From Escherichia coli (lineage in GTDB: Bacteria > Pseudomonadota > Gammaproteobacteria > Enterobacterales > Enterobacteriaceae): DNA of 23,721 nucleotides. Under the pieces are notes generated by a model. It had not been told where the DNA came from, did not search any database, and worked only from the letters and a program-made list of their open reading frames with translations. Position 1 is the stretch's first letter. Every line of letters begins with the position of its first letter. Positions 20,546 through 20,875 of this stretch are shown piece by piece. The stretch lies in the NCBI RefSeq assembly GCF_003334815.1, contig NZ_QOWO01000049.1; one strand, given 5' to 3'. The position numbers and the translations under genes are program-made.

Positions 20546-20875
20546 GTCCATTAAGACCAGAAAACTGGCTTGATATACAATTTATCTATGCTGATCACTG
20601 CTGGGACAATGCTATTGAAACAGTGAGTTCACATATAAGTATCATAATGAGAGGAAAACAAAAATAGCAGTATAAAAATAACCCAGCACCAGTTACCTTA
20701 CAAAGATCATGGAACAATCCAATAATAACTTGCGCTGGGTTATATACTTATATATTGATAACTTATCAGAATTTTATAAGTGGAGTAAACACCGTATATA
20801 TATCTTCGTAGAACAGATAAAAGCATCTTGTATAACAAAACTTACAAAGTGCCTTAATTATATAGATAACAGGAG

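Follow-up and report, generated by a model that had tools for sequence, protein, structure and literature searches.

In F-like (MOBF12) plasmids, the region downstream of traM contains the traM terminator, PJ and the traJ leader with finP, and the next gene, traJ, is co-directional with traM. Transcripts of traM reportedly read through in part into traJ in F and R1. FinP is antisense to the 5' untranslated region and ribosome-binding site of traJ and forms two stem-loops (SLI and SLII); the gene for its partner chaperone, FinO, stands at the distal end of the tra operon. Intrinsic (Rho-independent) terminators usually have a loop of about 3-8 nt. In P2-family (Peduoviridae) prophages, the repressor gene C is followed by an intergenic leader and then by the ribosome-binding site and ATG of int. 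Here, we compare a 330-bp spacer from an F-like plasmid of Escherichia coli with these systems.

The DNA analysed is a single stretch of 23,721 nt (hereafter, the window). It comes from an E. coli plasmid of the F-like (MOBF/MPF_F) type, whose transfer region lies on the minus strand, and it is 99.9% identical to pJNE25-005_2 (NZ_AP045059.1) across the region compared. Read from right to left on the minus strand, the order is the SLT gene, oriT, traM (21262-20876) and the spacer (20875-20546). Next come the plus-strand C-like HTH gene (20243-20545) and the minus-strand Cox-family gene (20124-19837), and then traA, traL, traE and onward. The spacer, bounded by the stop codon of the C-like gene (TAA, 20543-20545) and the end of traM at 20876, is convergent, intergenic, non-coding and assigned to neither strand. 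A preliminary description had reported a strongly AT-rich, gene-free stretch between convergent genes where traJ would be expected, and as an observation this is accurate. The coordinates are right, no genes are annotated between them, the C-like gene (plus) and traM (minus) do converge, and the G+C content is 31.8% against 51% for the whole window. In CP088376 (L002), an ordinary F-like plasmid with flanks 96-98% identical to those of the window, a distance of 479 bp separates traM from traJ on its downstream side. Just 1.4% of the 330-nt segments in the window are equally AT-rich. The AT-richness is real, yet it is not peculiar to the spacer, as the regulatory region is AT-rich throughout (G+C of 0.34 in oriT, 0.32 in the cox-traA gap and 0.39 in traM). 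The interpretation offered in the preliminary description was half right, as detailed below.

Homology with CP088376 extends over 18300-19737 (98.5% identity) and 20817-21800 (96.2%), with nothing between, and about 190 other plasmids match from 20817/20820 onward only. From these limits it follows that a foreign cassette of 1,079 bp (19738-20816, no strand) replaces 1,046 bp, equivalent to 1955-3000 of CP088376, in which are found most of traY, PY, traJ, the traJ leader with finP, and PJ. The cassette comprises the Cox-like gene, the C-like gene and 271 bp of the spacer. Judging from this comparison, a P2-type cox/C cassette took the place of the traY-traJ-finP control region in an F-like plasmid. 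Of the nearest Cox relatives (about 59% identity), every one belongs to a chromosomal int-C-cox prophage beside pdxB. Among finished records, the cassette was identified in no more than two plasmid entries of PLSDB and a single complete E. coli plasmid in RefSeq, whereas 263 blocks of a large assembly collection contain the exact C-like protein. Literature searches turned up no description of a Cox/C module in F-like plasmids. What stands out is the surrounding cassette rather than the spacer. It puts a phage lysogeny switch upstream of the genes for the pilus and for transfer, and is rare in finished plasmids but present in hundreds of assemblies. The spacer itself is real and is an ordinary non-coding seam.

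Owing to the replacement, the Cox-like gene is immediately followed by traA and the tra operon. The gene annotated upstream of traA in CP088376 (55 aa, presumably traY) is still matched over 39 nt (window ~19699-19737), and its last ~13 codons thus seem to be preserved as a fragment on the downstream side of the Cox-like gene.

The same comparison, together with the phage matches described below, indicates that the spacer is a composite of three pieces (20546-~20625, ~20626-20816 and 20817-20875) with the right-hand cassette breakpoint at 20816/20817. The piece beside traM (20817-20875, minus strand) is the ancestral traM 3' flank of the F-like backbone. It occupies the same position downstream of traM as the traM-traJ region of F-like plasmids and is homologous to it (about 80-96%), including the traM terminator hairpin. 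Unlike those plasmids, the window lacks the distal U-tract, PJ, the traJ leader with finP, and traJ itself, and has foreign DNA instead, with a convergent rather than co-directional gene beyond.

The preliminary description had proposed that the spacer may be a decayed remnant of the traJ region. The position fits a remnant of traJ, finP or PJ, and the 59 bp adjoining traM are truly ancestral. The remaining 271 bp are part of the foreign cassette: a distant BLASTN search of 72,556 plasmids, of the kind that the preliminary description had proposed as a check, returned no match to 20546-20816 beyond sibling plasmids, blastn and tblastx against a standard traM-traJ region match 20812-20900 only, and the left part of the spacer is demonstrably phage-derived. 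We therefore consider a decayed control region to be exceedingly improbable, and outside the 59 bp flanking traM the proposal is effectively refuted.

The left piece (20546-20625, plus strand) is what remains of the leader that lies between C and int in P2-family prophages. Both nucleotide homology and position, directly after the repressor stop codon, support this assignment. The best match is to a Citrobacter prophage (75.9% identity over 58 nt, E 1.6e-7; nhmmer E 9.6e-12; tblastx E 3e-10), and weaker matches were found in Salmonella and E. coli prophages, phage ESSI2_ev239 and one metagenomic element. In the alignment of six prophages and phages, identity is 63-76% (nhmmer E 1e-5 to 1e-11). 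Unlike the phage leaders, the homology in the spacer stops 20-30 nt short of the int ribosome-binding site and ATG, and no int gene follows. A decayed int was not identified past ~20637 using blastn (word 7), tblastx or nhmmer. The leader is 94-96% identical among the three plasmid lineages described below, and its homology and placement indicate that it came in together with the C-like gene. Prophages of Citrobacter, Salmonella and E. coli share a conserved nucleotide sequence in the C-int leader (~96 nt), and the plasmid has kept this leader without int, which suggests that it has a function of its own in phages.

The middle piece (20626-20816, no strand) is an AT-rich orphan core of the cassette, with ~30% G+C. 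Matches to it were identified in sibling plasmids only. Nothing else was found in PLSDB by the distant BLASTN search, in 50,697 phage records, in five prophage loci, or in 5,426 complete E. coli genomes apart from the sibling plasmid. In IMG/VR, neither an exact block nor seven relatives of the C-like protein yielded a match, and a metagenome scan recovered two clade-B copies.

The most prominent feature of the core is a long hairpin (20678-20743, minus strand), detected as an inverted repeat and by folding. It has 18-nt arms (20678-20695 and 20726-20743) and a partly structured 30-nt loop. On the minus strand, the predicted energy is -31.2 kcal/mol (z -5.1; 0 of 200 shuffles as good), and UUAUUUUUAUACUGCUAUUUUUGUUUU stands directly after the hairpin, within a U-rich tract (UUUUAUACUGCUAUUUUUGUUUUCC, 20653-20677) that contains a U5-6 run in all three lineages. 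The plus-strand fold has an energy of -20.9 kcal/mol and lacks a U-run after it. The hairpin of the other two lineages has an energy of -25 kcal/mol (z -4.4 and -5.5) and is followed by the same U5-6 run. In an alignment of seven distinct sequences, 95% of the cells form pairs, and 12 of the 17 pairs show no variation. Two pairs have changed on one side only, between A-U and G-U when read on the minus strand; read on the plus strand, the same changes would give A·C mismatches.

In its G+C-rich stem core (CCCAGCGC/GUGCUGGG), the U-run that follows at once and a stability far above that of shuffled sequence, the long hairpin resembles Rho-independent terminators between convergent genes. A U-rich tract near the stem is present on the minus strand only (UUAUUUUUAU for the long hairpin and UUUUAUCUGUU for the traM hairpin), so that, unlike a bidirectional terminator, the structure would act in one direction. 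It is also unusually long: neither its 30-nt loop, which is predicted to be partly paired, nor the 10-nt loop of the traM hairpin is as short as is typical. A consensus terminator scan called no terminator in the spacer, at either hairpin, and a crude scan of the window for hairpins followed by U-runs showed that other sites of similar energy exist. We propose that the long hairpin is best filed as an atypically long putative intrinsic terminator for traM read-through.

The same locus was collected from 24 other assemblies and records, which fall into three lineages (clades A-C) plus minor variants. Between-lineage identity falls smoothly from the C-like gene toward traM: 94-96% at 20546-20613, 86-91% at 20614-20677, 82-88% at 20678-20743 (the hairpin) and 70-80% at 20744-20816; it is 78-85% in the traM flank (20817-20875). 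Third-codon positions of the neighbouring genes, taken as a rough neutral baseline, are 92-93% identical in C, 77-90% in cox and 73-88% in traM. Measured against this baseline, the rate of evolution over most of the spacer is about that of silent sites. A local excess of conservation was identified in the long-hairpin arms and U-run only, where ~17% of the columns vary, compared with ~37% in the loop and ~64% in the 5' flank. On the U-tract side, the conservation may in part reflect low local divergence rather than selection. The stretch between the hairpin and the breakpoint (20744-20816, no strand) is hypervariable, with up to 87.5% AT and 1-nt indels, and appears unconstrained.

These patterns bear on whether the spacer is a pure fossil, with DNA that was dragged in with the cassette and a long hairpin left over from the terminator of a lost donor gene, with no selected role. 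Consistent with such an origin, identity in the core between lineages (70-88%) is not above the third-codon identity of the neighbours (73-93%), and a donor context for the core was not found. No compensatory change was identified in the hairpin among the seven sequences from three lineages, a sample in which a covariation test has no power. However, conservation is distinctly higher in the stem arms and U-tract than in the loop and the neighbouring 5' flank, and the hairpin has a z score of -4.4 or lower in all three lineages. We regard the fossil as unlikely, while giving it some weight.

The second putative terminator on the minus strand is that of traM itself. In CP088376 it has the textbook form, reading GCACCUUGUG...CACAAGGUGC and then UUUCAUGUUUUUUU. 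In the window, folding places the hairpin arms at 20843-20852 and 20823-20832, followed by UUUUAUCUGUU (20810-20856 overall, minus strand), with one mismatch and one wobble pair, and the distal half of the U-tract has been replaced by cassette DNA. The predicted energy is -18 kcal/mol in CP088376 (z -3.6), -17.4 in clade B, -12.4 in clade C and -8.1 in the window (z -0.8). The folding thus indicates that the traM terminator is weakened or degenerate in the lineage of the window, and that clades B and C keep it better. In a sibling, GCA_031062715.2 (~3610-3652), an IS66-family element lies in the loop of the traM terminator and parts the cassette from traM.

Taking these observations together, we think it somewhat probable that the spacer is a passive junction whose functional content is the termination of minus-strand transcription. 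The P2-type cox/C cassette that replaced the control region brought with it ~80 bp of phage C-int leader and an AT-rich orphan stretch of ~190 bp, and the junction was made just beyond the traM terminator. The first working part on the minus strand would be the old traM terminator, apparently degenerated in the lineage of the window, and the second, ~130 nt further on, the strong and conserved long hairpin with its U-run. Both would stop traM transcripts before these run antisense into the C-like repressor gene, and the long hairpin would matter most in the lineage of the window, where the original traM terminator appears to have decayed. The hairpins, the U-tracts and their conservation are present; that the hairpins terminate transcription is a prediction from folding, and the benefit, as we infer it, would be insulation of the C-like gene.

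The long hairpin and U-run could alternatively be part of a rewired circuit, either as the 3' end of a cassette-borne regulatory RNA on the minus strand or as a tunable insulator of traM read-through antisense into the C-like gene. In ordinary F-like plasmids, the same read-through feeds traJ. If the circuit exists, read-through from traM would couple expression of the relaxosome to the P2-type C/Cox switch that now drives the tra operon. We consider this improbable.

For the convergent transcript, the result is different. The preliminary description had suggested that the spacer may hold terminators for both transcripts. On the minus (traM) side this is supported by the two hairpins with U-tracts, but a canonical intrinsic terminator for the plus-strand C-like transcript was not identified in the spacer by the consensus scan or by folding. 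A small hairpin just past the C-like stop (20550-20574, plus strand; -10.6 kcal/mol, z -2.3), with a CCAG-AAAA-CUGG core, is not a canonical terminator because no U-tract follows it, and it is only partly conserved in prophage leaders. The C-like transcript probably ends by the action of Rho or at the hairpins; C/G skew, used as a proxy for Rho sites, gave no clear signal.

There is no conserved open reading frame in the spacer. The plus-strand ORF that overlaps the end of traM (20709-20900) had been judged spurious in the preliminary description, and the comparison agrees. It encodes 63 aa in the window, 51 aa in other clade-A plasmids, 52 aa in clade B and 36 aa in clade C; the first ~12 codons are kept, and then the frame shifts through 1-nt indels between lineages. 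A single extra T near 20855 in the window (TTAATTATATAG vs TTAATATATAG), found in no sibling sequence, is alone responsible for the lengthening from 51 to 63 aa and for the overlap with traM. On the minus strand, ORFs of 40 aa (20595-20717) and 32 aa are likewise not conserved in frame or length among the three lineages. As the spacer ORFs change frame among the lineages, we conclude that none is a gene. The presence in the window of the 63-aa ORF and of the 40-aa ORF, which is hydrophobic, might be taken to indicate a small protein. However, the latter is reduced to 16 codons in the clade C alignment, Shine-Dalgarno sequences were not found for the spacer ORFs, and neither the plus-strand ORF nor the two minus-strand ORFs have a family match in NCBIfam or PHROGs. 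The probability that the spacer encodes such a protein is, in our estimate, negligible.

The preliminary description had also raised the possibility of a small RNA. Such an RNA would start in 20745-20815 on the minus strand, end at the long hairpin and U-run, and act as a regulator in the place of FinP. The position is equivalent to that of finP, and, like FinP, the long hairpin is a stem-loop just downstream of traM with a 3' U-tail, here stable and present in all lineages. Unlike FinP, it is a single rather than a double stem-loop, and there is no traJ leader for it to pair with, traJ and its leader having been replaced by the cassette. A consensus scan identified no minus-strand promoter-like site in the spacer; the one weak plus-strand site lies inside the loop of the long hairpin and is not conserved in other lineages. 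Any promoter for such an RNA would have to be in the segment of the spacer that diverges most, with 70-80% identity and indels. An Rfam scan of 19000-22500 at E values up to 10 returned only chance microRNA-like matches in oriT, a negative of low power for FinP, as the model (RF00107) also misses finP in the CP088376 control. A covariance model of the long hairpin, run over 20 loci, found no copy other than those of the siblings. According to the annotation of NZ_AP045059.1, outside the window, there is no finO after traX. We give a regulatory RNA of this kind little credence, and the suggestion is not borne out by these results.

In CP088376, which has a divergent traJ allele, a FinP-like hairpin is visible in the traJ leader (within 2581-3058), yet the Rfam model does not detect it, so that Rfam negatives for FinP carry little power in F-like plasmids generally. 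In NZ_AP045059.1 (2805-2995), traX is followed by genes for an ANR-family regulator and a thermonuclease and by hha; like traJ, FinOP seems to be absent in its entirety.

The composition of the spacer, 68% AT overall and 87.5% in one 40-nt window, is within the range of H-NS targets (about 65-80% or more), as the preliminary description had noted. The main role of the spacer could be architectural, with the AT-rich tract nucleating H-NS and silencing traM, the C-like gene or the cassette, an idea compatible with termination of minus-strand transcription. Footprinted H-NS sites in the PY region of R1 are 77-81% AT, which the composition of the spacer fits (PMC7303359), and the spacer contains two near-matches to the high-affinity motif. 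However, composition alone is unspecific, as the oriT and cox-traA regions are equally AT-rich. The motif matches are only mildly above chance window-wide, the IHF consensus is absent from the spacer, and the most AT-rich part evolves freely. We see only a slim chance that this is the main role.

With transcription termination at a passive junction as the preferred reading, the spacer is what one would expect between convergent genes, and its value is diagnostic. Its three-part make-up fixes the right-hand breakpoint of the cassette and shows that a P2-type C/Cox module was spliced in just past the traM terminator, with removal of traJ, finP and most of traY. For tests of the control that the cassette may exert over conjugation, the relevant points are that the spacer has no hidden gene, a traM terminator that is predicted to be degenerate in this lineage, and a second, strong hairpin located between traM and the repressor gene.

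Between the spacer and the C-cox operator region, shared repeats are limited to short matches at chance level. Within the divergent region between cox and C, the direct repeats TGGCAGATGTGACAA (20196-20210) and TGGCAGATATGTCAA (20235-20249) are 39 bp apart, and the second covers the start codon of the C-like gene. These repeats are candidate operator sites for the C/Cox switch. A bulged hairpin (CUUGCCUGCAU...AUGCAGGUAUGCAAG) followed by U7 was identified on the minus strand (~19890-19935), within the 3' end of the Cox-like coding sequence. The edge between its A-tract and stem, AAAAGCAGCTTGCATA, resembles the edge of the traM terminator, AAAAGCATCTTGTATA, probably by chance. This hairpin could serve as an attenuator between cox and traA.
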